64,000 bases of DNA from contig CM000434.1 in the NCBI GenBank assembly GCA_000165345.1, positions 928,001 to 992,000 of the forward strand. The letters run 5' to 3'. Within the stretch, counting starts at the first letter, position 1. Every line of letters starts with the position of its first letter. Shown here piece after piece: positions 38,693 to 50,267 of this stretch. The notes beneath the pieces are model-generated. The model searched no databases. It saw nothing but the letters and a program-made list of their open reading frames with translations, and was not told the DNA's origin. A program made the position numbers and the translations under genes.

Positions 38693-41600
38693 TTACCACA
38701 AGTCTACATCAATATCCAGATCAGTAAGTGCCACATTTGTATCATCAGCTTGGTTGGAAACCTCTTGTAAGAATGCTGGAGTTTGTACTTCTCCTTCATT
38801 CGCAAACCAGCTTGCCATTTCATCAAGTTTACTGGTTTTGACAGCATTCGCCTTTGGCGCCATATTTACTGTCAATTTTTGCTTTTGTAATGTAGGTCTG
38901 GATTCTGTTGTTCCTCGTTTAGGTTGGGAAACTGATTTCTTTTCTGATAGTTTAAGCTTGACTGTGCTTGCGCTCTTTTCTCTCTTTGCGAGATTTTCTT
39001 GCTTTTGTTTTAATCTTCGTTCTTCATCCAACTTTGTTTTACGTACGAGATCTACTGATGAAATGAAATTCCATAATACACGGAAATAATCTGGCCAAAC
39101 AATTCTTTGAATCGTATTTTGCGGTTCTCCCAAGTATAGTGCCATCTTTTCTAGATTTTCTTTAACACTTTTCATAGTTGCTACTAAATCTTCAATTCTA
39201 GGCTCAGTATCGGAAACAAAGTCTGCTAGAATCTTAGCAATGGGATCCTTTTCTCCCATAGGGCCGGCTCTCTCATTACTTTTCTGAGCTGATTTCATTG
39301 TATCTGTGACCTTATTTAAAGATCCATTCAGTGATTGAATTTCACCTTCAATAGCACCTAAATCGCATTTGGCTGCTTTCTCTACTAAAGCCAATGGCTC
39401 TGCCAAAGAAAGCAATTCTGGCTTATCTCTCCAAATAATCTCTGTGATATATTGAAGCAAAGTTTTAATAGGTTTAGTACTCGAACGAACTTCACATAAC
39501 TTTGATAGTGAACTCATTCTAAAACCTTTAGCTTCTCCCTTTTCTGTATTAAGATTCAAAACATTACCAACTGAAAGAATTATAGAAAATACTTTCTTAA
39601 GCTTTGAATTTGTCTTAATTTCGTTGCAAACTGTAATAATCTCTTGTAAAGGCGTCATTAATTCATTAAAGGAATTGTCAAACGAAAGAATAAACAGCTG
39701 AGCGTTCAAACGAGCGCCAAACATTGGAATACCAATCATTGCAGCTATAAATTGTTCAGGCTTATCCAACTGAGTCAAGTCACCTCCTGCATCAATATAC
39801 TCTTTTACGATTGCAAACTCTTCTGGAGTTGGGGTCATTAAAATCAAAGCTTCTGTAGCTTCTGTATCCAAAATCTTCTTATCAAGATCCAATATAGCAT
39901 CACGCAATTGTTGGAATGTATATGCACTGAACTTTGATAATGCAATACTTATATTGTATGCTCTCTTTGAGTCTGGTAAAATTTGCATGACCTTTGGCTT
40001 CTTTGTCGCCTCTGTCGCCTTCTTTGGTTTTGCTGATTCGATACCAAATACTTCCTCCAAATTTCCGAAATCCAACTTGATTGGTTCTTTAATATCCCAA
40101 ATTGTACCTTGAATATTCTCAACCTTATCCCAATGTAACTTCTTTGTCTTCGATTCTGGACCACTTGGCTTACTTCCTGTCTTTCCTCCAAATTTCCCTG
40201 CCTTTCCTTTTGGGGGTCCTTTTCCTGTTGGGGGTCCTTTCCCACCTGGTGGTCCTTTTCCCCCTGGAGGACCCTTTCCTCCTGGAGGTCCTTTCCCTTT
40301 CCCTGGTGGGCCCTTTCCTTTTGCTGGCGGCGTGCCCTTTGCCGGTGGCGCGCCCTTTGCCGGTGGCGCGCCCTTTGCTTCTGCTGGTTCTGCCTTTGGT
40401 TCTGTAGGAGCACCTTCTTTTGCTTGCGGTGGCGGAGATTTGTTAATAATGTTGTCCATTTTCCCAATACCATCCAGCAATCCAGATAATGCCTTTCCTG
40501 ACTTTACACCTGCTCCTACAATACCTGTGTATACCCCTCCATCCGAAGGTTTGTATTGAATCATTGAGCTAATAAGGGCGCCAACTCCGCTACCTTTAAG
40601 AAGTTCTATCACACCCTGTGAATCAGGAGAAGGAAGTCCCCATTTTGCTGATGCTGTAAGAGCAATTCTAGTTGAAGCGCATACAAATGGCTCAAGATCG
40701 ATCACATAAGGCAACTTTGTTACTACGTTACCCCCATCATCTAAAAATGAAATGCATGCAAGTCTTTCATTACCAGATTCTTCTACATCAGGTTTTGCTC
40801 CTTTAATCTTTGCTAAAATATCATCTGGAGGAAGTTGTTGATCGATACCTACTATCTGAGTCTGAGTTACTTTAACTTGTTTAGCCTCCTCCTTATCTTT
40901 ATTTCTTTGTCTAACTAAAGGAATCAATGCATTTGGAATCCATATTGATTCTTTGAAATAAGCCTTCATTTCTTCCTTACCTGCATAATCTACTAATGGC
41001 AAATAAAATGGTAAACCTGTACTCTCATCTTTTTCTATTTGAGTTAACAACTTCCCTTCTGGAGTTATACAAGGTTCTGGAATCTCCCATTTCTCCAAAA
41101 CTGTCTGAGCTTCTTCATTTATCATCATTGTCACTGACTGCTCTCCCATAACTGGGAATCCTCTTGTTAACTTTGGAATGTTTATTATAGGTAACTTCTT
41201 TCTTTCTGTCTTACTAAATGGAGGAAGAGAAAGCATTGTAGAAACTCCTAGATAGTCTGGACCTGTAATTCTTACTTTCAAGTGAGGTAAAATTGCTGTT
41301 GAACTCACTGTCATACTCTGAAATGACTCTCCATGTAGTGCTCTGATTCTTGAAGTGCATAAAAGTTGTTGAGTTTGGTTATTTGAAAATGGGGTACTTC
41401 TATTTAACCCTCTCAAATTCTTTGGATCAAATAAAAAAGTCTCCAATTGTCGATACCTTAATTGATCAATACTTGGACAAATTGGACTTGCTAATAATGG
41501 TGATTCCTCATACATTATTCTTGTTAATTTACTTGATTTTCCTAAGGTATCGGTAATTATTTCTTTTAAAGATCTCTCTGCTCTTGATTCTAGTGATTCT

Positions 41601-43609
41601 CTTGCATCAATACACTTGTTCTGAAGCTCATGAGCTATATAAGAGTCTGTACAACTGCTTACATTCTCTGTTAAGTATACTTGGGTATCTGCATCTAATA
41701 AAGTTATCAATTCTAATACATATCTTGTATCAGGATGATCAAATCCTAAGTTCTCTCTTCTATATTTATAAACCTCATTATAAAGCTCTAAAGCATATCT
41801 AAAGTTTCCAGCCTGGTGAAAAATACATCCCAAAGCTAGTATATTGTCTTGTACTAATGGAAACTCTCTGTTATTGTAGATCCTCATTAACATATCTAAA
41901 GCTACCATTATATGTTGTACTCCTTGTCTACAATCTCCAAGTAATCGATAAACTAATCCCAAATTTGAATAGCAATCAGCTACACGAGGATGAGGTGGAT
42001 TCTTATTATGATCTCCCAGAACCTGTTTTCTGATTTCCAGACAATTATGTAACATTTCCTTACATTTTTCAAAATTCTTTATTCTGAAATAGTAACTTGC
42101 TGCTGTAGAGTATGCATCACTCATAACTAAGTCTCCTGAACCATAAACTTCATTTACTAATGAAAGATATTTTTCAAGGTAAAATGCTGATGATGTATGA
42201 TCTCTATACATACTACATAGATCAGAGACTGTTAGTACCAGACTACATAATACTGAAGAATCACATGAAACTGATGGTCCTACAGCTGTAACATTTTGAG
42301 TTGAACCTCCAGATCCTGATAAATTTGAGATATTGCTAATATGAGAAGAATCATTTTTTGCATTTTTATTCTCAGAATTGCGATCTGCAACAGCTAAGAT
42401 GGTATTTTCCACAAGAAATCGAAGCTCTTTAAGATATTGTTCTCCTTTACGTAATTCTCCTGTTAAACCACAACATTTAGCAATAATGATTAATTCTACA
42501 ACCATTATACCTTCTAATGGGTGTCCAAGGTACTTGGATAGAAAAGCTCGAGATATTTCATAACAATGTAAAGCATTCAGCATGGCATCTGAGTATTGAG
42601 CTTTCAAAAACTTCTCTAAAGCTGAGCTTCTTAGTCTTTGAATGATTCTTTGAATTTCATGTATTTCTCCATCTCCACGTGATTCTTCAAGACGTTGTAA
42701 AAGAAGAAGGGAATCTGTCATAATTTCAAACTTCTCATTAACAATTTGAGGTCTGGCTTTTGTTGTTTGTCCAAATAAGAGATTATTCTTTTCAGAAGTT
42801 GTTAGTGTAAAGTGTCTACTTGCAAACTCTTCTTTAAATGTTTGACTTAAAGCTGCTAGTGAGTGTTCAGCAGCTTCTGTTAATGCTGGATCCAATACAC
42901 TTACGTGTAGATTAAACATATCATCTTCTCTTTGAGAAATTCGAGCATTTCTTCCTTCTTTTTTTTTCAAGTTACTTTTTCCAGGAGCTTTATCTTGGAA
43001 AAGTAGACGTTTAATAGGGCCAACATCAAAAGGAAGAGTTGATTCAACAAAGGTACTTCTATTACTTAATTCTGAGTAACGTCCATCTTTAGAGAGATTG
43101 TTCTTCAATAGTTTAGATTCACCATTAATAGTGGTTGCAGTAGAAGATGCTCCTGTTGAGCTGGAAGGTAGACTACTAGCTTTGGAATCTTTACTTATAC
43201 TTTTCAGAACAGTTTTTGCTGAGGCTGGCTTTGATGGTACGCTTACTGGAGGAGCGTGACCATTGGATACTGGTGTATCATTTAAAGGTTCTGATGAATT
43301 TTTAGGTATTGGGGCCTTTGGGGCTGGTTTTAATGCAGTAGGAGGTCCTTTTGAGACCTTTGGACCAGGAGGAGAGGGTGATGGAGAAGCTGACTTTGGT
43401 GGAGGTGGTGTTGATGGTTTTGGTGGAGGTGGGGATGATGGTTTTGGTGGAGGAGATTCTGAAAGGTTTGGAGAAGGAGTTGAAGATAATTTTGAAGGTG
43501 GTGGAATTTTCGTTGCTGGTTTCCCTCCAAGTGGTTTAGCAGGGGGAGGCGGTTTTTTTCCACCAGGAGGAGAAAGAGGAGCCTTGCCTGGCACACCCAA
43601 TTTTTTCAT
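38693..43609 (-). CDS. Formin (FH1 poly-Pro/Gly region plus FH2 domain) with a Pro-rich N-terminus and a TPR-like helical-repeat region (1638 aa)
   Basis: FH1: GAPPAKGAPPAKGTPPAKGKGPPGKGKGPPGGKGPPGGKGPPGGKGPPTGKGPP. It is followed immediately by FH2 (KKLHWDKVENIQGTIWD..., MQILPDSKRAYNISIALSKF, GNVLNLNTEKGEAKGFRMSSLSKL). The N-terminal region has TPR-like repeats (ADCYSNLGLVYRLLGDCRQGVQHIMVALDMLMRIY) and a PPPPKPSTPPPPK tract. Confidence 0.85.
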   Translation of the reverse strand: MKKLGVPGKAPLSPPGGKKPPPPAKPLGGKPATKIPPPSKLSSTPSPNLSESPPPKPSSPPPPKPSTPPPPKSASPSPSPPGPKVSKGPPTALKPAPKAPIPKNSSEPLNDTPVSNGHAPPVSVPSKPASAKTVLKSISKDSKASSLPSSSTGASSTATTINGESKLLKNNLSKDGRYSELSNRSTFVESTLPFDVGPIKRLLFQDKAPGKSNLKKKEGRNARISQREDDMFNLHVSVLDPALTEAAEHSLAALSQTFKEEFASRHFTLTTSEKNNLLFGQTTKARPQIVNEKFEIMTDSLLLLQRLEESRGDGEIHEIQRIIQRLRSSALEKFLKAQYSDAMLNALHCYEISRAFLSKYLGHPLEGIMVVELIIIAKCCGLTGELRKGEQYLKELRFLVENTILAVADRNSENKNAKNDSSHISNISNLSGSGGSTQNVTAVGPSVSCDSSVLCSLVLTVSDLCSMYRDHTSSAFYLEKYLSLVNEVYGSGDLVMSDAYSTAASYYFRIKNFEKCKEMLHNCLEIRKQVLGDHNKNPPHPRVADCYSNLGLVYRLLGDCRQGVQHIMVALDMLMRIYNNREFPLVQDNILALGCIFHQAGNFRYALELYNEVYKYRRENLGFDHPDTRYVLELITLLDADTQVYLTENVSSCTDSYIAHELQNKCIDARESLESRAERSLKEIITDTLGKSSKLTRIMYEESPLLASPICPSIDQLRYRQLETFLFDPKNLRGLNRSTPFSNNQTQQLLCTSRIRALHGESFQSMTVSSTAILPHLKVRITGPDYLGVSTMLSLPPFSKTERKKLPIINIPKLTRGFPVMGEQSVTMMINEEAQTVLEKWEIPEPCITPEGKLLTQIEKDESTGLPFYLPLVDYAGKEEMKAYFKESIWIPNALIPLVRQRNKDKEEAKQVKVTQTQIVGIDQQLPPDDILAKIKGAKPDVEESGNERLACISFLDDGGNVVTKLPYVIDLEPFVCASTRIALTASAKWGLPSPDSQGVIELLKGSGVGALISSMIQYKPSDGGVYTGIVGAGVKSGKALSGLLDGIGKMDNIINKSPPPQAKEGAPTEPKAEPAEAKGAPPAKGAPPAKGTPPAKGKGPPGKGKGPPGGKGPPGGKGPPGGKGPPTGKGPPKGKAGKFGGKTGSKPSGPESKTKKLHWDKVENIQGTIWDIKEPIKLDFGNLEEVFGIESAKPKKATEATKKPKVMQILPDSKRAYNISIALSKFSAYTFQQLRDAILDLDKKILDTEATEALILMTPTPEEFAIVKEYIDAGGDLTQLDKPEQFIAAMIGIPMFGARLNAQLFILSFDNSFNELMTPLQEIITVCNEIKTNSKLKKVFSIILSVGNVLNLNTEKGEAKGFRMSSLSKLCEVRSSTKPIKTLLQYITEIIWRDKPELLSLAEPLALVEKAAKCDLGAIEGEIQSLNGSLNKVTDTMKSAQKSNERAGPMGEKDPIAKILADFVSDTEPRIEDLVATMKSVKENLEKMALYLGEPQNTIQRIVWPDYFRVLWNFISSVDLVRKTKLDEERRLKQKQENLAKREKSASTVKLKLSEKKSVSQPKRGTTESRPTLQKQKLTVNMAPKANAVKTSKLDEMASWFANEGEVQTPAFLQEVSNQADDTNVALTDLDIDVDLW
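40325..40380 (-). repeat. GC-rich 18-bp tandem repeat (gccctttgccggtggcgc x approximately 2.5) inside the formin FH1 coding region
   Basis: ggcggcgtgccctttgccggtggcgcgccctttgccggtggcgcgccctttgc. This local GC island in an AT-rich genome encodes (GAPPAK)3 on the minus strand. Confidence 0.85.
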
Positions 43610-44286
43610 AGTTGAATAATTTTTTTCTGTTTAAATATTAGTTAATTTAGACCTATTTGAGTATAACTCTTTAATTCTTTTCATTTATTGATTCTTTTTT
43701 TTTTTGACTCAGAGTTTTCCCAATCTAGAAAAGGGTCTAGATTGACATTTTCTTTCAATATTGAAGAAAAAAGCGTTATTCTTTGTAATTTGTTAGTTTT
43801 TTAATTTAGGGAATCTTAAAAATATCCACAAGAAATTTAAAAATAAAGAAAAAAAGAAAATGCACCCCTATCTCTGTGGTTTTTATAATTTTAAAATTTG
43901 TTGGGTATTTCCAGAAAATTTTCACCAGAGTTAGGGGTACTAATATATCTACATGCACACAAAGATATTATTGGTGTATTTTGGGAAAAAAAACAACAAA
44001 TATTTTTTTTGACAAGTTTTAGTGTTTGTTTTACTTTGAATTTTTACTATTGTATGTTCTTATTATCTTCTTTGTTAATTTCTATATCTTATAATTTTTT
44101 TTTTTGTAATTCAAAAACACATTTTAATTTATTTACAAATATGACGTGTGTGCATGGTAAGAAATTTATTGGGAATATTAATTTTTAAATTAATATGTTA
44201 AATGGAAAATATATTTAAAGAGAAATGAGAATAAAAGTAAAAAATTAATACATTTTTTTTTTAGATAAAAATATGAAATAGGATAA

Positions 44287-45310
44287 TTATCTAACAAGTT
44301 CCTTTAAAAAATGTTCGTAGTTAAATCCTCCATCATTAGATGGGAAATCCCTAATTAAAAAAAATAGTAAAAATGTTAAAAGCAGGTTGGGGGAGGCTGT
44401 TTGCATGCATTTACTTGCATGGCAAATTATCACTATACCGGCGTACATGCAAGATGTACAAATAGGCGGCATATGGCACGTATTGAAATATATGAACTTA
44501 CTTTAAAAGTATTTCAATTTCTTTATTGGTTAAAACTTCTCCTGTATTAGTTAATAGAGAAGTCAGCTGCTGGCTAGTGATTGATCCAGAGTTCTGTAAT
44601 ATTGGAAGAAATTGATGAATTAGAAATAATATTATAAATAGAAAATGGAGAAGTGGCACAAAGTATATTGAACTTACATTTGAGTCATACGATCTGAAAA
44701 ATTGAACTAGATTTTCAAAAGTGTCTTCTGGATGTACAATAGAATCACAAAATTTTACAAAAGCTTGTAAATCACATGTTTGACCAACACTTGCGACAAA
44801 TCTCTGGACTTCGCTTTCAGATGGCGCTAATCCCTAAAATTAGGAATAAAAGTGATGTTTAATTAATAATAAAAATGGAGTGGAAAACTGACCATTCTTC
44901 TAACAATTTCTCCAATTTTATTGGTTTGAATGGTTGGACCTCCTCCCTATAGTTTAAAAGAGAATAATGGTATTAAAAGATGATATTAAAGATTGCTTGG
45001 GATTAGGAGTTGGGGTTAATATGGCGGAGTAATGCATTTATTTCTCCATTTTACATATCCCAAGGATGACTTGGTAAAAGCTTAACTTACAGCAGCATCT
45101 CTGAATGAAAATTCAATTCTCTCTTTGGACTATAAATATGAAAAAAGAATTAATTTATTTGCAAAAAAAAAAAAAATTAAGTAATGATAATTAATAGTTA
45201 GTCATTTCTATGAGATTCAAGTTTCTTCCCTAGTTTCTCAAAATTCACTAAAGGAAGAAAAAATGGATGGAGCGTAACAATCAAAAGAACTTACAATCTT
45301 GAAAGGTGGC
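44287..45310 (-). CDS. Calmodulin-like / myosin light-chain-like EF-hand protein. Six exons on the minus strand: 45293..45310, 45089..45127, 44893..44946, 44678..44833, 44502..44593, 44287..44350 (140 aa).
   Basis: Hand-spliced translation: MPPFKI|SKERIEFSFRDAA|GGGPTIQTNKIGEIVRRM|GLAPSESEVQRFVASVGQTCDLQAFVKFCDSIVHPEDTFENLVQFFRSYDSN|NSGSITSQQLTSLLTNTGEVLTNKEIEILLK|DFPSNDGGFNYEHFLKELVR*. It aligns with calmodulin ([40 protein letters not shown]...). Donors are GTAAGT x4 and GTCAGT x1, acceptors TAG/CAG, and the frame is maintained across all junctions. Only the last exon appears in the ORF track (44287..44472). Confidence 0.7.
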
Positions 45311-45522
45311 ATCTAAATAACTGTATATAATTATTTTGCTTGCGATCTTCACACAAAATTGATAATCTATAAATTGTCTTTTTTTTTTAACTAAAATAAT
45401 TTGCTCTTGAATTTTTTCCCTCTTTATTTTTCATGCGCTTTTTTCTCTGTATAATAAAATCTTTATTTTATTTATTTCAAATATGCCGCCTTTTATTTCA
45501 CGACCAAATGGCAAAGCAGATA

Positions 45523-45558
45523 AAGGCGGGACTTTAGGGCGGGCAAATGTGCATGTTG
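45523..45558. promoter_or_regulatory. Divergent promoter between the two EF-hand genes: two GGCGGG boxes plus GTGCATG
   Basis: aaaggcgggac at 45523-45533 and tttagggcgggcaaatgtgcatgttg at 45534-45559, between the minus-strand ATG at 45310 and the plus-strand ATG at 45878. Confidence 0.5.
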
Positions 45559-45877
45559 AATCTTGTAATGTAAATTTTTCGATACCTTCGAAGTTAAAGA
45601 TTTAATAAAAATAAAAAAATTGTGAGGAATTTCAAAAAAAGAAAATTAAGCAAGAGTTAGAATTTAAATTGTTAAGATAAGAAGAATTTGTGACTGTAAT
45701 TGTTAAATATTGAGATACTGAACCTTTTATTTCTGAGAATTATTAAAGTGTAAGTGTGAGTTAATTTAGGGGACATTGATCAAAGAAAAAAAAGTATTGG
45801 CAAAACTGTTGTAATTGGGTTATTTAAATTTATTCATTTTTTTCTAAAAAAGGAGATTTAAAGTAAGAAAAGTAGAA

Positions 45878-46966
45878 ATGATTTCATTATTAAATGGAAC
45901 AGGATGTGTTTCTTGTACTTCTGGGTGCAAGGTTGTAATTGATGACTACAAAACTACAGGAAGAATAGAATATGGTGTATTTGTAGGATATTATTCTGAA
46001 AGTGAAGAAAGTGATTATGATGAATCAGATGTTGTTACTTTAGATAAGAAGCCTTCAAATATCCAAGATTCATCAAGTGCTGAAGCAGTCTCTATTGAAG
46101 ATGAATTAGAAGAAGGTGAAGCTGATATTATTAGAGAAATGTTTGATAATGCTTCATCTGGAGGAGAATGTTCATTAGATCAGACATGCCATTTAGCACA
46201 TAGAATGGGTCTAGCACCTTCTAAATCAGATCTTGAACAACTTAACGAAGAAACTGGTGGAAAAGTAACTTATGAAGATTTTGAAAGGTGGATTATGTCA
46301 ATTACACATCCAGAAGACCATATTGATTATATGGTTTCATACTTCAGAAAGTACGATTTGAGAGGAAATGGCAAGATTTCAAGACAGCAATTCATTTGGT
46401 TAACAAGTATTGGCGGTGATATTCTTACCAGAGAAGAAGCTGAAGCTATTCTTGATAAGTTGTCCATTGGAGGAGATGTGTACTATGAAGATTTACTCAG
46501 AAAAATTATGGATGTCGAAGCTTCTGATAAGCCTATGGTAAATATTGGAAACAAGAAATCAACGCCTACAAAAATGCCAACAACTAAAGTACTTGTGACA
46601 CAAGTTTCGACTACCATAAGAGATTTAGCTGATAATGAAGCATTCCTTCCTACTATTGATCTTCTTATGGCTTTAAAAGCAACCTATGGAAATGAATTAA
46701 CTGAAGCAGCTGCAAAAGAAGCCACAGATTGTTGTGAAAATCAGGATGAAGCTGCTAAATGTTTACAAGAATTCTACTCAGAGTGGGCACAAAATAAAGG
46801 TATGGTTTCTAGAAAAATTGTTAGAAGTCTACTTATGGTCTGGAAGGCTAAGTTAGACCAGGTTAGTGCTGAGGCTTGGATTACAAGCTTATGTGGAACC
46901 GATGAAAATATTGATATTCAAAGTGTTTTGAACAAGGTAGAATGCAAAACTAACGAGATAAACTAA
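45878..46966 (+). CDS. EF-hand domain protein (362 aa) with a central four-EF-hand calmodulin-like module; paralog of the adjacent multi-exon gene
   Basis: Shared blocks with the neighbouring gene: HRMGLAPSKSDLEQL vs RRMGLAPSESEVQRF, and SITHPEDHIDYMVSYFRKYD vs SIVHPEDTFENLVQFFRSYD. An EF-hand-loop-like DLRGNGKISRQQF is present. Intronless, with N- and C-terminal extensions. Confidence 0.65.
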   Translation: MISLLNGTGCVSCTSGCKVVIDDYKTTGRIEYGVFVGYYSESEESDYDESDVVTLDKKPSNIQDSSSAEAVSIEDELEEGEADIIREMFDNASSGGECSLDQTCHLAHRMGLAPSKSDLEQLNEETGGKVTYEDFERWIMSITHPEDHIDYMVSYFRKYDLRGNGKISRQQFIWLTSIGGDILTREEAEAILDKLSIGGDVYYEDLLRKIMDVEASDKPMVNIGNKKSTPTKMPTTKVLVTQVSTTIRDLADNEAFLPTIDLLMALKATYGNELTEAAAKEATDCCENQDEAAKCLQEFYSEWAQNKGMVSRKIVRSLLMVWKAKLDQVSAEAWITSLCGTDENIDIQSVLNKVECKTNEIN

Positions 46967-47264: not shown

Positions 47265-50200
47265 ATGAATGGAGGATTTAGGGGGAGAAACCATAATGTA
47301 ACAGAAGATCATTTGAATTACAATATACCAAATAACTCTATACAACCACAATATGTGAATGGCACGTCAACCCATGCTCTTGGAATCCAAGAAGCAACTA
47401 ATCTTACAAATTTAAGGGGAAATTTTATGGGGAATGATGGTTCTGACTATATTCCAGTTCAATTAAGAGCTGCTAATACTAATTTAAATACCAATCATTC
47501 CATTAGTCAGAATGTAAACCAGACAACCTATGGACAAAATCTCTATGATATTAATAGAAACGCTCCTGGACAAATGGGAACAAAGAGCTTTGGAGGATCA
47601 AGAATGGGAGTTGCTCAATCTAAGGGGATGGCTCACACTCAGCAAATTGGTATGCAGTATGGTGATTCTATGCAAAATGGGAATCAAGGCGCCAATATTG
47701 GAGCCATGCATGACTCTAATATTGCTTCTTATGGTGTTGCAGAAATGAGTTATAGGAGTGGAAATAGCAGTAGTAGTATTGGTAGTCAGGGTGTACATAA
47801 TAACATTGATTCCTCTGCTAATACTCAAAATGTCGATATCCACGATATTTCTATCCAGAATTCCTATATGAGTTCACAATCACAACCTAGAACAGTATCA
47901 AAATCGAGATCCATATCACATACTAGAACACAATCTCAGCCTGTAGCTATGGTTCATCAGCACCAATATCAACAACAACAGCAGCAACAGGTTCAACACC
48001 TTAATCATCAACAATACTTTCACTCTCAACAACAGCAGCAGCAGCGTATGCAGACCTTTTCTCAGTCTCAGACTCAGAACCAGACCCAAACTAAGACTCA
48101 GGCCCAAATCCATTCTCAGTCTCATTCCCAATCCCATGTTAAAGCCCCAAATCAGACTCAAACTCAAACTCAGGTTCATTCTCAAACCCAAATCCTATCT
48201 CAATCCCAGCCTCAATCTCGCTCTCATCTTCAGTCTCAGAGTTTGCCAGGTCCACAGTCCCAGACTTATTTTAGCCATACTCAGCCAAATAACAACATGC
48301 AGCCTCCTTCTCACCCGAGAACTCAACCATTACCACATCCCTACTCCCAAGGAAACCCAGGACATCAAGTATCATCTCAAAACTTCTCCAGTTCAAGCAT
48401 TCATCCAAATTTAGTATCAGCTCAAGGATCTCACGCACAAAAAAACTTCCAAAGCTTTTCATCTTCTAATATTAATCAGAGACAAATTGGAGACAATTTG
48501 AAAAATCCAAACCATGGAATTAATGTTGGACCTAATTCTATTTATACAAAAATAGATGATACCGGGGTGGGAACATCAGGAGTAGGAGGCAGTCAGTATA
48601 GGTCGAAGCCTTACTCTCAACAGAGTAATAAATACACTCATCAGCAACAAATGAATCCAGTAAACTCAATATTGCATCCAAACTATTCTCAATCTTACTC
48701 ACAGGGTTCTTCATCTAATTTAGGTGGATTGACAGAGACAGATTCTAAGACAATGTCACAATATATATCAACAATTGGATACAAGACAAGTAACATAGAT
48801 TTGGGAGTTTGTAGCTTTCAAGTCAACGTTCCAAACAATATTTCAGATGAATTAAGAAATTCTATTATTAGATTGGTTCCAAAAGAACAGCTCAACTCGG
48901 TATTTTTCCTTGTTTCATCATTAATTAGCAAGAGTATCAATTTTAGAGACTTTCATGTTCGTTTAATAGCTATTTTGAGGAGTAGTCAACTTGTTGAAAT
49001 TCTTGAAAATATGCTCAGAGATTACTTCCAACTAAGTACCTCTTCTTCAAATACAAATTACACTGGAATTGCTATTCATCAAGGTATCTCAGATTTAAGA
49101 GGTCAAATTTCTCATCCAATTACTACTAATAGCCAAGTTTCTGCAGGAAGATCTGACTATTTATTGGCATCACAATCTCAATACACATCTGGAATAGGCT
49201 CTAATAGTCAAATATATGATGGTACATTATTGAACTCTATGATTTCTCATGCTCACTCAAAAAAGTCTATTAGTAGACATGGAGGACATTATAATATGCA
49301 TGCAAAAGAGGATATATTATTACAGATGTTGAAACATGCAAGATCTAAATCTGTTGCAAGCTTTATAGGTATTGATATGACTGGACCTTCTTCTTATATT
49401 TCTAAAATAATCTCAAATAAAACTATACAAAACAAATCTATGGTATTGGAAGAAGAATCAATATCTCCAGAAACTCTTAATATTTATACGGAAAAACTTA
49501 ATAATTATGGTCGATACCTCCTTTCTTGTGATAGTTCACTTAACTTAGAATTTATGAATTCAAATCAACAATCTGTTACTTCTAAATTAGGGAAAATAGT
49601 TAAGTTTGGTACTCAGCCAGATTTAGAAAAATCAGTTTTCTCAAGTCAAGCAGTAAAGACAATCCATAAGTTAGCATCTTTCTATGTTAGGGATATACTG
49701 AAGTTCATCCTTAATGAGGAAAGTATAAGTAATGATAAGCTGAATGGTAAAGATCTTGAAGAAGAAGAAGAAGAAGAAGAAGAAAAAGGAAAAAAAAGGG
49801 AAGAGATACAACATAATCAAAGGGGACAAAGTGATCGTCAAATTATTGATGATCTGATTGGAAATAGTAATAGTATACAAGTTCAAAAAATGGAGAATTC
49901 AAAAACTGTTAGCCTTATATCTAAAGACTCAAGCTCTAATAATTCATGTAATTTTGGAATGGGTAAATCTATTGGAGGAAAAGGTCTGGGAATGAAGTTA
50001 ACTTTATCTGGTAACGTTTCCTCTGTAAAACCCATAATGATTACTAGTCTATGGTCATGTATATACAAATCCTTACGTTATAATATGAATAGATATAATG
50101 CATGCGAACCTAATGCTTTCCATAATATAATAATTAAGAATCGTCCAGGACATTCTAAAGAACAATGTTCGAATTATATTCTAATTCCAGAGTCAATGTA

Positions 50201-50267
50201 TAGAAGTGTTGAATCCTGGCTTCTTTCAAATGCTTATAATCAATGGGATAAACTTAGTATATTATAA
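47265..50267 (+). CDS. Gln/Ser/Asn-rich low-complexity protein (1000 aa), possibly a transcription-related factor
   Basis: Long ORF. The N-terminal half is polyQ and QSQ/QTQ repeats. A conserved-looking helical island (ISDELRNSIIRLVPKEQLNSVFFLVSSLISKSINFRDFHVRLIAILRSSQLVEILENMLRDYFQ) is weakly reminiscent of TAF4-type helical domains; this is not a confident assignment. Poly-E (GAA)n lies at about 49757-49781. Confidence 0.6.
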   Translation: MNGGFRGRNHNVTEDHLNYNIPNNSIQPQYVNGTSTHALGIQEATNLTNLRGNFMGNDGSDYIPVQLRAANTNLNTNHSISQNVNQTTYGQNLYDINRNAPGQMGTKSFGGSRMGVAQSKGMAHTQQIGMQYGDSMQNGNQGANIGAMHDSNIASYGVAEMSYRSGNSSSSIGSQGVHNNIDSSANTQNVDIHDISIQNSYMSSQSQPRTVSKSRSISHTRTQSQPVAMVHQHQYQQQQQQQVQHLNHQQYFHSQQQQQQRMQTFSQSQTQNQTQTKTQAQIHSQSHSQSHVKAPNQTQTQTQVHSQTQILSQSQPQSRSHLQSQSLPGPQSQTYFSHTQPNNNMQPPSHPRTQPLPHPYSQGNPGHQVSSQNFSSSSIHPNLVSAQGSHAQKNFQSFSSSNINQRQIGDNLKNPNHGINVGPNSIYTKIDDTGVGTSGVGGSQYRSKPYSQQSNKYTHQQQMNPVNSILHPNYSQSYSQGSSSNLGGLTETDSKTMSQYISTIGYKTSNIDLGVCSFQVNVPNNISDELRNSIIRLVPKEQLNSVFFLVSSLISKSINFRDFHVRLIAILRSSQLVEILENMLRDYFQLSTSSSNTNYTGIAIHQGISDLRGQISHPITTNSQVSAGRSDYLLASQSQYTSGIGSNSQIYDGTLLNSMISHAHSKKSISRHGGHYNMHAKEDILLQMLKHARSKSVASFIGIDMTGPSSYISKIISNKTIQNKSMVLEEESISPETLNIYTEKLNNYGRYLLSCDSSLNLEFMNSNQQSVTSKLGKIVKFGTQPDLEKSVFSSQAVKTIHKLASFYVRDILKFILNEESISNDKLNGKDLEEEEEEEEEKGKKREEIQHNQRGQSDRQIIDDLIGNSNSIQVQKMENSKTVSLISKDSSSNNSCNFGMGKSIGGKGLGMKLTLSGNVSSVKPIMITSLWSCIYKSLRYNMNRYNACEPNAFHNIIIKNRPGHSKEQCSNYILIPESMYRSVESWLLSNAYNQWDKLSIL

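Follow-up and report, generated by a model that had tools for sequence, protein, structure and literature searches.

The 64,000-nt window analyzed here, a segment of Cryptosporidium parvum chromosome 6, carries on its minus strand a gene of six short exons (45312–44287) whose 140-aa product we interpret as a Ca2+-insensitive light chain with a calmodulin fold, belonging to the MLC1/MTIP/MLC4 clade of apicomplexan myosin light chains and, within that clade, to the MLC4 type. We assign a probability of about 0.5 to this interpretation taken as a whole, including expression of the gene. The six-exon model itself is virtually certain to be genuine, and that the product is a light chain of the MLC1/MTIP/MLC4 clade is probable, while the narrower assignment to the MLC4 type is tentative, at slightly under even odds. 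The six-exon gene was recognized correctly, but it had been annotated before.

Explicit splicing of the minus strand joined the six exons across five GT..AG introns of 165, 144, 59, 84 and 151 nt, in transcript order, into a 423-nt CDS for a 140-aa EF-hand protein (MPPFKISKERIEF...FLKELVR), using GTAAGT as the donor four times and GTCAGT once, and TAG as the acceptor four times and CAG once. The initial annotation had arrived at the same protein by hand, with the same donors and acceptors, and placed the gene at 44287–45310; the 44287 end stands, but the ATG begins at 45312, and one of the five intron lengths it gave, 142 nt, has to be corrected to 144 nt (intron 2), the other four being accurate. 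Exon 1 (45295–45312, 18 nt) encodes MPPFKI from the ATG at 45312–45310, and an in-frame TAG lies immediately 5' of that ATG, so that the reading frame could be extended upstream only through a further intron. Intron 1 (45130–45294, 165 nt, GTAAGT..TAG, phase 0), which contains in-frame stops, is followed by exon 2 (45091–45129, 39 nt, SKERIEFSFRDAA), intron 2 (44947–45090, 144 nt, GTAAGT..TAG, phase 0), and exon 3 (44893–44946, 54 nt, GGGPTIQTNKIGEIVRRM), which bears the degenerate loop of EF-hand 1. Beyond intron 3 (44834–44892, 59 nt, GTCAGT..TAG, phase 0), exon 4 (44678–44833, 156 nt, GLAPSE...HPED...FFRSYDSN) bears the clade motifs GLAPS and HPED, and exon 5 (44502–44593, 92 nt, NSGSITSQQL...ILLK) contributes the EF-hand 3 loop with Gln at position 12. 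These two exons are separated by intron 4 (44594–44677, 84 nt, GTAAGT..CAG, phase 0); intron 5 (44351–44501, 151 nt, GTAAGT..TAG, phase 2), with TGCATGCA at 44402–44409, leads into exon 6 (44287–44350, 64 nt), which encodes DFPSNDGGFNYEHFLKELVR and ends in the TAA stop.

All junctions keep the frame, as had been proposed, but the accompanying claim that each of them removes in-frame stops fails for intron 4, which in C. parvum is in frame and stop-free. Its length is also a multiple of three nucleotides, and the case for its being an intron is comparative: variable length combined with constant GT..AG boundaries. One protein in the collected set, P0008, is a gene call from genomic DNA that reads through this intron. 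The statement that the terminal exon alone is visible as an ORF is accurate at the default cut-off of 60 aa and breaks down at 30 aa, where exon 5 also falls inside an ORF (44498–44659). Rfam and tRNA scans over the window gave no matches. The suspicion that five introns are unusual here is borne out by published figures, according to which about 90% of C. parvum genes are intronless and the others average 2.6 exons, the range being 2–10 (PMC4637869); five introns are many for this genome, yet inside the published range. By our own arithmetic from the table in that paper, intron density here is about 1 per 85 nt of CDS, compared with about 1 per 10 kb genome-wide. The locus is a clean case of ORF-based scans missing a short, intron-dense gene in an intron-poor genome.

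The spliced product is identical, letter for letter, to GenBank QOY41303.1 of C. parvum, and the same protein is present in C. hominis and C. tyzzeri; since this exact product has been public for years in all three species, the gene model adds nothing new. The gene bears the locus tags CPATCC_002990 and CPHLJ_6g4155, and the authors of the CPATCC annotation report RNA-seq support for 100% of introns (PMC8744675); no transcript contig coding for the full 140-aa product was found in the sequence collection searched. The supplementary list of the 2015 reannotation includes cgd6_4150 and cgd6_4160 but not the 140-aa gene, and a full-text literature search for cgd6_4155, cgd6_4160 and CPATCC_002990 found no paper. 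UniRef automatically names the protein 'Calmodulin'; the orthologue from C. andersoni is entered there as 'Myosin light chain MLC4'. Annotations in at least six species (C. meleagridis, C. ubiquitum, C. felis, C. ryanae, C. bovis and C. muris) are truncated or retain introns, and these faulty models could be corrected using the conserved six-exon structure.

That structure is maintained across the genus. The exon lengths of 18, 39, 54, 156 and 92 nt and the GT..AG junctions are the same as in C. parvum in the seven other species or genotypes compared (C. meleagridis, chipmunk genotype I, C. ubiquitum, C. canis, C. felis, C. bovis and C. ryanae). In an eighth relative, C. andersoni, introns 2–5 occupy unchanged positions and exon 1 is shorter, encoding MKL upstream of a candidate acceptor, as obtained by re-reading the DNA of the locus under the guidance of the C. 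muris protein P0024. Thus counted, five GT..AG introns are present in 9/9 species, C. parvum included. The introns themselves vary: across the seven other species intron 1 spans 137–309 nt, and intron 4 measures 81, 116, 61, 56, 47, 109 and 114 nt elsewhere, with GT..AG throughout. Intron 5 ranks with the best conserved of them, and in distant species intron identity drops to 0.34–0.58, which is near random. Substitutions in the spliced frame fall mostly on third codon positions (against C. canis, for example, 21/10/93 by codon position), and dN/dS is 0.08–0.17. The spliced frame is under purifying selection while the introns evolve freely. Taken together, the identical deposited proteins, the homolog scores, conservation in eight other species and this dN/dS put the gene model far beyond chance.

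The protein has an EF-hand architecture with disabled loops. Pfam EF-hand_7 scores 38.2 bits on the spliced product against a threshold of 30, the profile check that had been suggested for it, and the AF2 model (pLDDT 84.7) contains eight helices, that is, a four helix-loop-helix fold. Alignment to calmodulin, with D-x-[DNS]-x-[DNS]-G-x-[ILV]-x-x-x-E taken as the canonical 12-residue loop, showed that all four Ca2+-binding loops are degenerate, as the initial annotation had supposed: none of the four is canonical. EF1 reads D-A-A-G-G-G, with ligand position 3 occupied by Ala, position 5 by Gly and position 12 by Lys, and has one residue inserted; EF2 has lost the first four residues of its loop; EF3 ends in Gln at position 12, as it does in TgMLC1, PfMTIP and the product of the adjacent gene cgd6_4160; and EF4 has Pro at position 1, one deletion, and His at position 12. 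At the N-terminus, six residues precede the first helix region, with neither Gly2 nor an N-terminal Cys, and the extension by which MLC1/MTIP-type proteins are anchored to GAP45 and the inner membrane complex is absent. Pfam MTIP_N (PF21550) reaches 22.2 bits, under its cut-off of 27. A hidden upstream exon with an MLC1-like extension was considered and is unlikely, given the in-frame stop 5' of the ATG, the short N-termini in the re-derived models of nine species, and the RNA-seq-based annotation.

Several comparisons connect the protein to the MLC1/MTIP/MLC4 clade. The N-lobe alone matches TgMLC4 best among PDB entries (6e-13), followed by TgMLC1 (8e-10), with calmodulin far behind (3e-5). 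The top Foldseek match of the model is TgMLC1 bound to MyoA, in a closed clamp conformation (TM 0.72–0.75), and PfMTIP has a similar TM. Profile-profile comparison with hhalign, whose scores vary with profile depth, gave 201 against MLC1-type proteins, 201 against a set of short relatives, 124 against the MLC4 profile and 104 against calmodulin. In a neighbor-joining tree with 300 bootstraps, MLC1/MTIP-type proteins, MLC4 and the Cryptosporidium 140-aa family are united, apart from calmodulins, at 89%; the nearest neighbors of the Cryptosporidium family inside the clade receive 16%. The GLAPS and H-P-E-D motifs and the terminal Gln of EF3 are common to the 140-aa protein and the MLC1/MTIP core. 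In N-lobe, structure and profile-profile scores alike, the closest characterized relatives are apicomplexan myosin light chains, as had been surmised, but the label 'essential or regulatory' is too coarse, and specific similarity to apicomplexan ELCs was not seen among the best 60 PDB matches listed.

A word-indexed homology search with a single protein query returned Cryptosporidium sequences only, and repeating it with a mixed alignment gained almost nothing; an exhaustive profile search brought up mainly unnamed sequences and proteins built of multiple EF-hand repeats, and cluster look-ups supplied names for its matches. In the collected set, which comprises only matches to the Cryptosporidium family's own profile, TgMLC4 and the Cystoisospora suis MLC4 have the Cryptosporidium family as their best match beyond their own cluster. 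Queried in reverse, the Cryptosporidium protein scores 77–81 bits with the short relatives P0033 and P0034 and with MLC1-type proteins of gregarines and coccidia, against 65 bits with TgMLC4. In gene structure, two of the five introns lie exactly where the C. suis MLC4 gene also has introns, and in the same phase (phase 0), with about 0.05 coincidences expected by chance in our own rough calculation. Intron 2 falls between RDAA and GGGPT here and between AEIS and GNSRS in C. suis, and intron 3 between VRRM and GLAPSE here and between ARYL and GLSPSE in C. suis. As the comparison was with the C. suis MLC4 gene alone, these two sites may mark the whole clade and not MLC4 specifically. The MLC1-type sequence P0046 in our set is an intron-free transcript contig.

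Divergently oriented to the 140-aa gene, across an intergenic region of 565 bp (45313–45877), lies cgd6_4160 (45878–46966, plus strand), an intronless gene for a 362-aa light chain of the MTIP/MLC1 type with N- and C-terminal extensions, which scores 49.8 bits with MTIP_N (4e-13) and matches TgMLC1 at 6e-17 and PfMTIP at 2e-16; its identity with the 140-aa protein is 33%. The intergenic region, which contains two GGCGGG boxes (45525–45530 and 45538–45543) at a similar distance to the ATG in five species, is a candidate bidirectional promoter, and the head-to-head pair is kept in all nine species examined. Downstream of the 140-aa gene, on the same strand, is an intronless gene for a 1638-aa protein with TPR and FH2 domains, a formin (38693–43609, minus strand); this arrangement, too, is conserved across the genus.

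These data bear unequally on the alternatives. That the locus is non-functional, whether as a pseudogene in decay or as short ORFs strung together by chance, might be suggested by the mere fragments that appear in a prokaryote-style ORF list, but nine species retain the splice sites, the frame and the exon lengths (the shorter exon 1 of C. andersoni aside), dN/dS is low, and the product is identical to a curated annotation with reported RNA-seq support; the comparative data effectively refute this explanation, and its probability is negligible. Only slightly less improbable is calmodulin, or a generic Ca2+-sensing calmodulin-like protein. Calmodulin is the best whole-length PDB match (5e-18, compared with 1e-16 for TgMLC1), EF-hand_7 exceeds its threshold and the UniRef name is 'Calmodulin', but all four Ca2+ loops are defective, and the protein is therefore not calmodulin; identity is just 26–29%, the N-lobe match is seven to eight orders of magnitude poorer than that to TgMLC4, and the profile-profile score is half that for MLC1-type proteins.

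A weightier, though still unlikely, alternative is that the Cryptosporidium MyoA motor uses the protein as its second light chain, in the role of an ELC, bound at the degenerate proximal IQ in the neck of MyoA beside the cgd6_4160 protein. ELCs are similar in size to the 140-aa protein, which resembles them also in having no N-terminal extension; the best match in structure is a light chain bound to MyoA; and divergent transcription from cgd6_4160 across the 565 bp with their GGCGGG boxes, in a pairing kept in nine species, suggests that two subunits of the same motor are co-regulated. The sequence affinity, however, is to the MLC1/MTIP/MLC4 clade, the known members of which sit at the distal MyoA site or on the MyoL neck, and neither TgELC1 nor PfELC is among the best 60 PDB matches listed for the whole protein and for the N-lobe, although their structures are in the PDB (6tj5, 6zn3). 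Because ELCs are very divergent between genera, this missing similarity is weak evidence.

The MLC4-type reading, which we prefer, makes the 140-aa protein a calmodulin-fold myosin light chain predicted not to bind Ca2+. Its two EF-hand lobes would clamp an IQ-like helix of a myosin heavy chain, located in the neck or the tail, and make this helix more rigid, in the manner of TgMLC1 and PfMTIP on MyoA. It would do so without the acylated N-terminal extension by which MLC1/MTIP are tethered to the inner membrane complex. In its most specific form, the protein would be the Cryptosporidium counterpart of Toxoplasma MLC4, the light chain seen in preconoidal ring P2 on the MyoL neck. In T. gondii, TgMLC4 is bound to the MyoL neck in PCR-P2 (PMC12819142), and a published conservation table has MyoL conserved in C. 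parvum and MLC4 absent there at a BLAST cut-off of 1e-18. The five introns would be old, two of them predating the split between Cryptosporidium and the coccidia and all five predating the radiation of the genus, and would have been retained while the genome lost most of its introns. A bolder version, possible but on balance doubtful, holds that the gene is an overlooked TgMLC4 orthologue, tabulated as absent from C. parvum because the BLAST cut-off was strict, and that its product is a structural light chain of a MyoL-like protein at the preconoidal ring and belongs to an ancient apicomplexan group of short MLCs with members in Babesia as well; the conserved pairing with an MTIP/MLC1-type gene and the adjacency of the formin would then mark a small co-regulated actomyosin/apical-complex cluster. 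Myosins are among the current drug targets in this parasite, and the 140-aa protein is a candidate for a light chain of one of the Cryptosporidium myosins; no description of the light-chain complement of Cryptosporidium myosins was found in the literature searched.

Set against known systems, the protein shares with calmodulin the two-lobe fold of four EF-hands and a calmodulin-like C-lobe sequence, but differs from it in the low identity, the four defective loops and the four-residue deletion in EF2. Its core aligns nearly without gaps to TgMLC1; unlike TgMLC1 and PfMTIP, which bind the MyoA tail in the glideosome, it has no N-terminal extension of 60–70 aa and no acylatable N-terminal Gly or Cys, and the MTIP/MLC1-type position is already taken by a clear representative, cgd6_4160, next door. 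Closer in size are the short relatives, Babesia gibsoni BgAZ_110880 (P0171/P0052) and P0033, P0034 and P0085 from sequencing-run assemblies, which at 136–163 aa have the same motifs, likewise have no long N-terminal extension, and each have the Cryptosporidium family as best or near-best match beyond their own cluster; identity to them is 26–34%, and their grouping with the Cryptosporidium family, which the neighbor-joining tree does not support, is hypothetical. TgMLC4 (TGME49_294390; PDB 9YA0 chain QA), the light chain on the MyoL neck in preconoidal ring P2, is only ~31–32% identical, has ~30 more N-terminal residues, a longer EF4 region and Val instead of Gln at position 12 of EF3, and the C. 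suis MLC4 gene lacks introns 4 and 5 of the Cryptosporidium gene. Orthology to MLC4 is confirmed neither by the similarity ranking from the Cryptosporidium side nor by the neighbor-joining tree. TgMLC4 nevertheless shares with the 140-aa protein the N-lobe pattern G..CDL.AF.+FC..(V)H.ED and a short form lacking the long MLC1-type anchor extension.

The window is AT-rich (GC ~26-40%) and its long uninterrupted ORFs are closely packed, but no ORF of at least 150 aa occurs in the 2.3-kb gap between a 1638-aa minus-strand ORF (38693-43609) and a 362-aa plus-strand ORF (45878-46966). For this gap, the initial annotation proposed a gene assembled by hand splicing of six exons, and explicit splicing of the minus strand reproduced it: exons 45312-45295, 45129-45091, 44946-44893, 44833-44678, 44593-44502 and 44350-44287 join into a 423-nt CDS encoding 140 aa. 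The reported donors (GTAAGT in four introns, GTCAGT in one) and TAG/CAG acceptors (TAG in four, CAG in one) were all found, and the end at 44287 stands, but the ATG opens at 45312 rather than 45310; introns 1 to 5 measure 165, 144, 59, 84 and 151 nt, which leaves four of the claimed lengths intact and corrects that of intron 2 from 142 nt. An in-frame TAG lies directly 5' of the ATG, so that no N-terminal extension is concealed in the same exon. Two further claims proved too broad: at a 30-aa threshold, exon 5 as well as the terminal exon falls within a listed ORF, and the removal of in-frame stops at every junction does not extend to intron 4 (44594-44677), which is stop-free and, at 84 nt, a multiple of three.

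Intron 4 is in frame and stop-free both in C. parvum (84 nt) and in C. meleagridis (81 nt). Its retention would add a hydrophobic segment of 27-28 aa with the frame kept, and one gene call on genomic DNA (P0008) translates right across it. In most species compared, intron 4 has a length not divisible by three, which settles its status as an intron; its open frame is probably a coincidence in T-rich sequence. The intron count had been described as unusual. C. parvum has 688 introns in 3,865 genes, with ~90% of the genes intronless, and its intron-bearing genes have 2-10 exons (mean 2.6) and a mean intron length of 99 nt (PMC4637869); six exons are in the upper tail, yet within the published range. 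Intron density is extreme, with five introns per 423 nt of CDS and an intron total of 603 nt versus 423 nt of exon.

The locus was compared with its orthologues in C. bovis, C. canis, chipmunk genotype I, C. ryanae, C. ubiquitum, C. felis, C. meleagridis and C. andersoni. With C. andersoni set apart, exon order, the exon lengths (18/39/54/156/92) and the GT..AG junctions are unchanged in all seven species, where introns range from 47 to 309 nt. In C. andersoni, introns 2-5 occupy unchanged positions and the N-terminal exon is shortened (MKL); the C. muris protein (MKLSRGLIEASF...) points to the same position of intron 1 relative to the S-[KR]-[DE] that opens exon 2. Codon-position differences from C. 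parvum are mostly in the third position (21/10/93 in C. canis, for example), exon identity to C. parvum is 0.68-0.95, with intron identity as low as 0.34-0.58 for distant species, and dN/dS (Nei-Gojobori), where dS is unsaturated, is 0.17, 0.12, 0.08 and 0.12. Conserved splicing, third-position bias and low dN/dS together mark a functional, spliced gene. Several deposited models of this gene are faulty, through truncation or run-on into introns: C. meleagridis (130 aa), C. ubiquitum (85 aa), C. felis (93 aa), C. ryanae (239 aa), C. bovis (168 aa) and C. muris (88 aa), with one C. canis assembly likewise affected. The conserved six-exon model restores a full-length product of 137-140 aa for all seven species to which it was applied (C. 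muris left out).

The exact 140-aa product is already in GenBank for C. parvum (QOY41303.1, locus CPATCC_002990; WKS78531.1; WRK33023.1), and the same cluster, at ≥90% identity and 140 aa, includes another C. parvum isolate (KAL5368295.1, CPHLJ_6g4155), C. hominis (CUV06841.1, KAL3127769.1) and C. tyzzeri (TRY50943.1). The plus-strand neighbour is an exact match to EAK90019.1, cgd6_4160 of C. parvum Iowa II, which places the window on C. parvum chromosome 6. An exact-sequence look-up yielded no accession from the 2004 annotation for the 140-aa protein, which fits a gene introduced by later reannotations. The 2015 reannotation added 74 new genes and raised the share of intron-bearing genes from 4.3% to 10.8% (PMC4637869), and the authors of the 2022 CPATCC annotation give its introns as 100% RNA-seq-supported (PMC8744675).

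The EF-hand identity originally proposed held up in a profile search (Pfam EF-hand_7, 38.2 bits vs a cut-off of 30), with MTIP_N, the N-terminal domain of myosin A tail-interacting protein, slightly below threshold (22.2 vs 27). The AlphaFold model (pLDDT 84.7) has eight helices, and its top Foldseek match in the PDB is the MyoA light chain TgMLC1 in its clamped complex with the MyoA tail (5vt9; TM 0.72-0.75), with similar TM scores for complexes of PfMTIP. The Ca2+-binding loops, previously noted as degenerate, are all four defective in alignment to calmodulin. In the EF1 loop, ligand positions 3 and 5 are Ala and Gly, one residue is inserted and position 12 is Lys; the EF2 loop is missing its first four residues; EF3 is near-canonical (D-S-N-N-S-G-S-I-T-S-Q-Q), with a final Gln replacing the bidentate Glu, a feature common to TgMLC1, PfMTIP and cgd6_4160; and EF4 has Pro first, one deletion and His last. 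Judging from these loop defects, the protein is very unlikely to act as a Ca2+ sensor. The gene is already annotated and of an ordinary kind, most likely encoding a Ca2+-insensitive myosin light chain with a calmodulin fold.

The divergent neighbour cgd6_4160 (45878-46966, plus strand) matches MTIP_N (4e-13), TgMLC1 (6e-17) and PfMTIP (2e-16), and calmodulin at only 1e-4, which by sequence marks it as a clear MTIP/MLC1-type myosin light chain of C. parvum. Over 123 residues it shares 33% identity with the 140-aa protein. Its GenBank name is merely 'EF-hands domain containing protein', its N-terminus is Cys-rich (MISLLNGTGCVSCTSGC), and its unusual C-terminal extension of ~150 aa returned no matches. 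Downstream of the 140-aa gene, on the same minus strand, is a formin with TPR and FH2 domains (38693-43609), so that three actomyosin genes adjoin across 38693-46966. The order and orientation of the MTIP-type gene, the short light chain and the formin are kept in 9/9 Cryptosporidium species examined, including the gastric C. andersoni. The 565-bp divergent spacer between the light-chain genes holds two GGCGGG boxes 13 nt apart (45525-45543, plus strand), which we take to be a possible E2F-like promoter element; the window has six copies of GGCGGGA versus 0.52 expected. The box pair precedes the ATG by 194-232 nt in C. parvum, C. meleagridis, chipmunk genotype I, C. ubiquitum and C. canis, with deviating box positions or number in the C. 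felis, C. bovis and C. ryanae loci. Another motif, TGCATGCA, is present 18 times in the window versus 0.93 expected, chiefly between ORFs, with one copy within intron 5 (44402-44409); a nearby block, TGCATGTA(C/T)GCCGGTAT, is kept in intron 5 of C. parvum, C. meleagridis, chipmunk genotype I and C. ubiquitum. The formin start is ~0.7-0.9 kb downstream of intron 5, which, given this position, may carry a regulatory element. Beyond cgd6_4160, a 1000-aa ORF with abundant Gln, Ser and Asn low-complexity sequence (47265-50267, plus strand) has no Pfam match.

Comparison with apicomplexan light chains, as suggested in the initial annotation, grouped the 140-aa protein with MLC1, MTIP and MLC4 by tree and profile comparison. 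Whole-length phmmer scores against the PDB are nearly level (calmodulin 5e-18, TgMLC1 1e-16, TgMLC4 1.5e-16), and the C-lobe resembles calmodulin in a generic way. Scored by itself, the N-lobe separates the candidates (TgMLC4 6e-13, TgMLC1 8e-10, calmodulin 3e-5, PfMTIP 1e-4), with no essential light chain among its best 60 PDB matches. A profile of four orthologues was run against 1.8 billion representatives; its best single-domain matches outside Cryptosporidium were two short unnamed proteins (P0033, P0034; ~1e-19), gregarine and coccidian MLC1-type proteins bearing the usual N-terminal extension (best P0037, 3.5e-19), a short 140-aa protein of a Babesia gibsoni cluster (P0052, 2.9e-16) and the TgMLC4 cluster (1.7e-15). 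One MLC1/MTIP-type apicomplexan light chain with this extension (P0091, XP_053993260.1) is annotated in the bee Hylaeus volcanicus, on a 2.76-Mb scaffold of the assembly, and probably derives from a contaminating parasite, for instance a gregarine. In a neighbour-joining tree, MLC1-type proteins, MLC4, the short relatives and the 140-aa family stand apart from calmodulin-type proteins with 89% bootstrap, with no firm internal order. Taken together, these sequence comparisons would place the protein within the MLC1/MTIP/MLC4 clade with a probability of about 0.8.

The main rival to the MLC4-like role preferred below is that of a second MyoA light chain, for which the chief argument is the conserved pairing with the MTIP/MLC1-type cgd6_4160. 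Profile-profile scores agree with the tree (201 for MLC1-type proteins, 201 for the short group, 124 for MLC4, 115 for cgd6_4160 and 104 for calmodulin). Counting against an MLC4 assignment, searches that start from the Cryptosporidium protein rank other proteins above MLC4. Two observations speak for it. In all-vs-all comparison of the collected set, the Cryptosporidium family is the best out-of-cluster match for TgMLC4, Cystoisospora suis MLC4, the Babesia protein and P0033, and for P0034 it is second only to a multi-domain protein; none of these five prefers MLC1-type proteins. Two C. suis MLC4 introns, both phase 0 (AEIS/GNSRS and ARYL/GLSPSE, slash at the intron), occupy the same columns as introns 2 and 3 here (RDAA/GGGPT and VRRM/GLAPSE), a comparison made with the MLC4 gene alone and for positions that are possibly clade-wide. 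By our estimate, five and four introns across ~420 possible sites would yield ~0.05 chance coincidences, so introns 2 and 3 were inherited. All five intron positions are older than the genus radiation and two are older than the split from coccidia; the many introns here are old introns retained, not gained. Babesia gibsoni BgAZ_110880 (P0171) carries a net insertion of eight residues at the intron 2 column (SYA/GGKS), missing from its near-identical transcript-derived cluster mate P0052 (from a sequencing-run assembly), which suggests a mis-called splice site and a putative piroplasm intron at this position.

Orthology to MLC4 is a tentative proposition, somewhat short of even odds, and our preferred guess is that the 140-aa protein would play an MLC4-like role on a MyoL homologue. 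The MyoL neck at preconoidal ring P2 carries three light chains, TgMLC4 among them (PMC12819142, PDB 9YA0; bioRxiv 10.64898/2026.01.06.697858). The conservation table of that study marks MyoL as found and MLC4 as missing in C. parvum, using a BLAST cut-off of 1e-18 (PMC12819142), a threshold for which the similarity to MLC4 seen here (phmmer 1.5e-16, PDB copy) is probably too weak.
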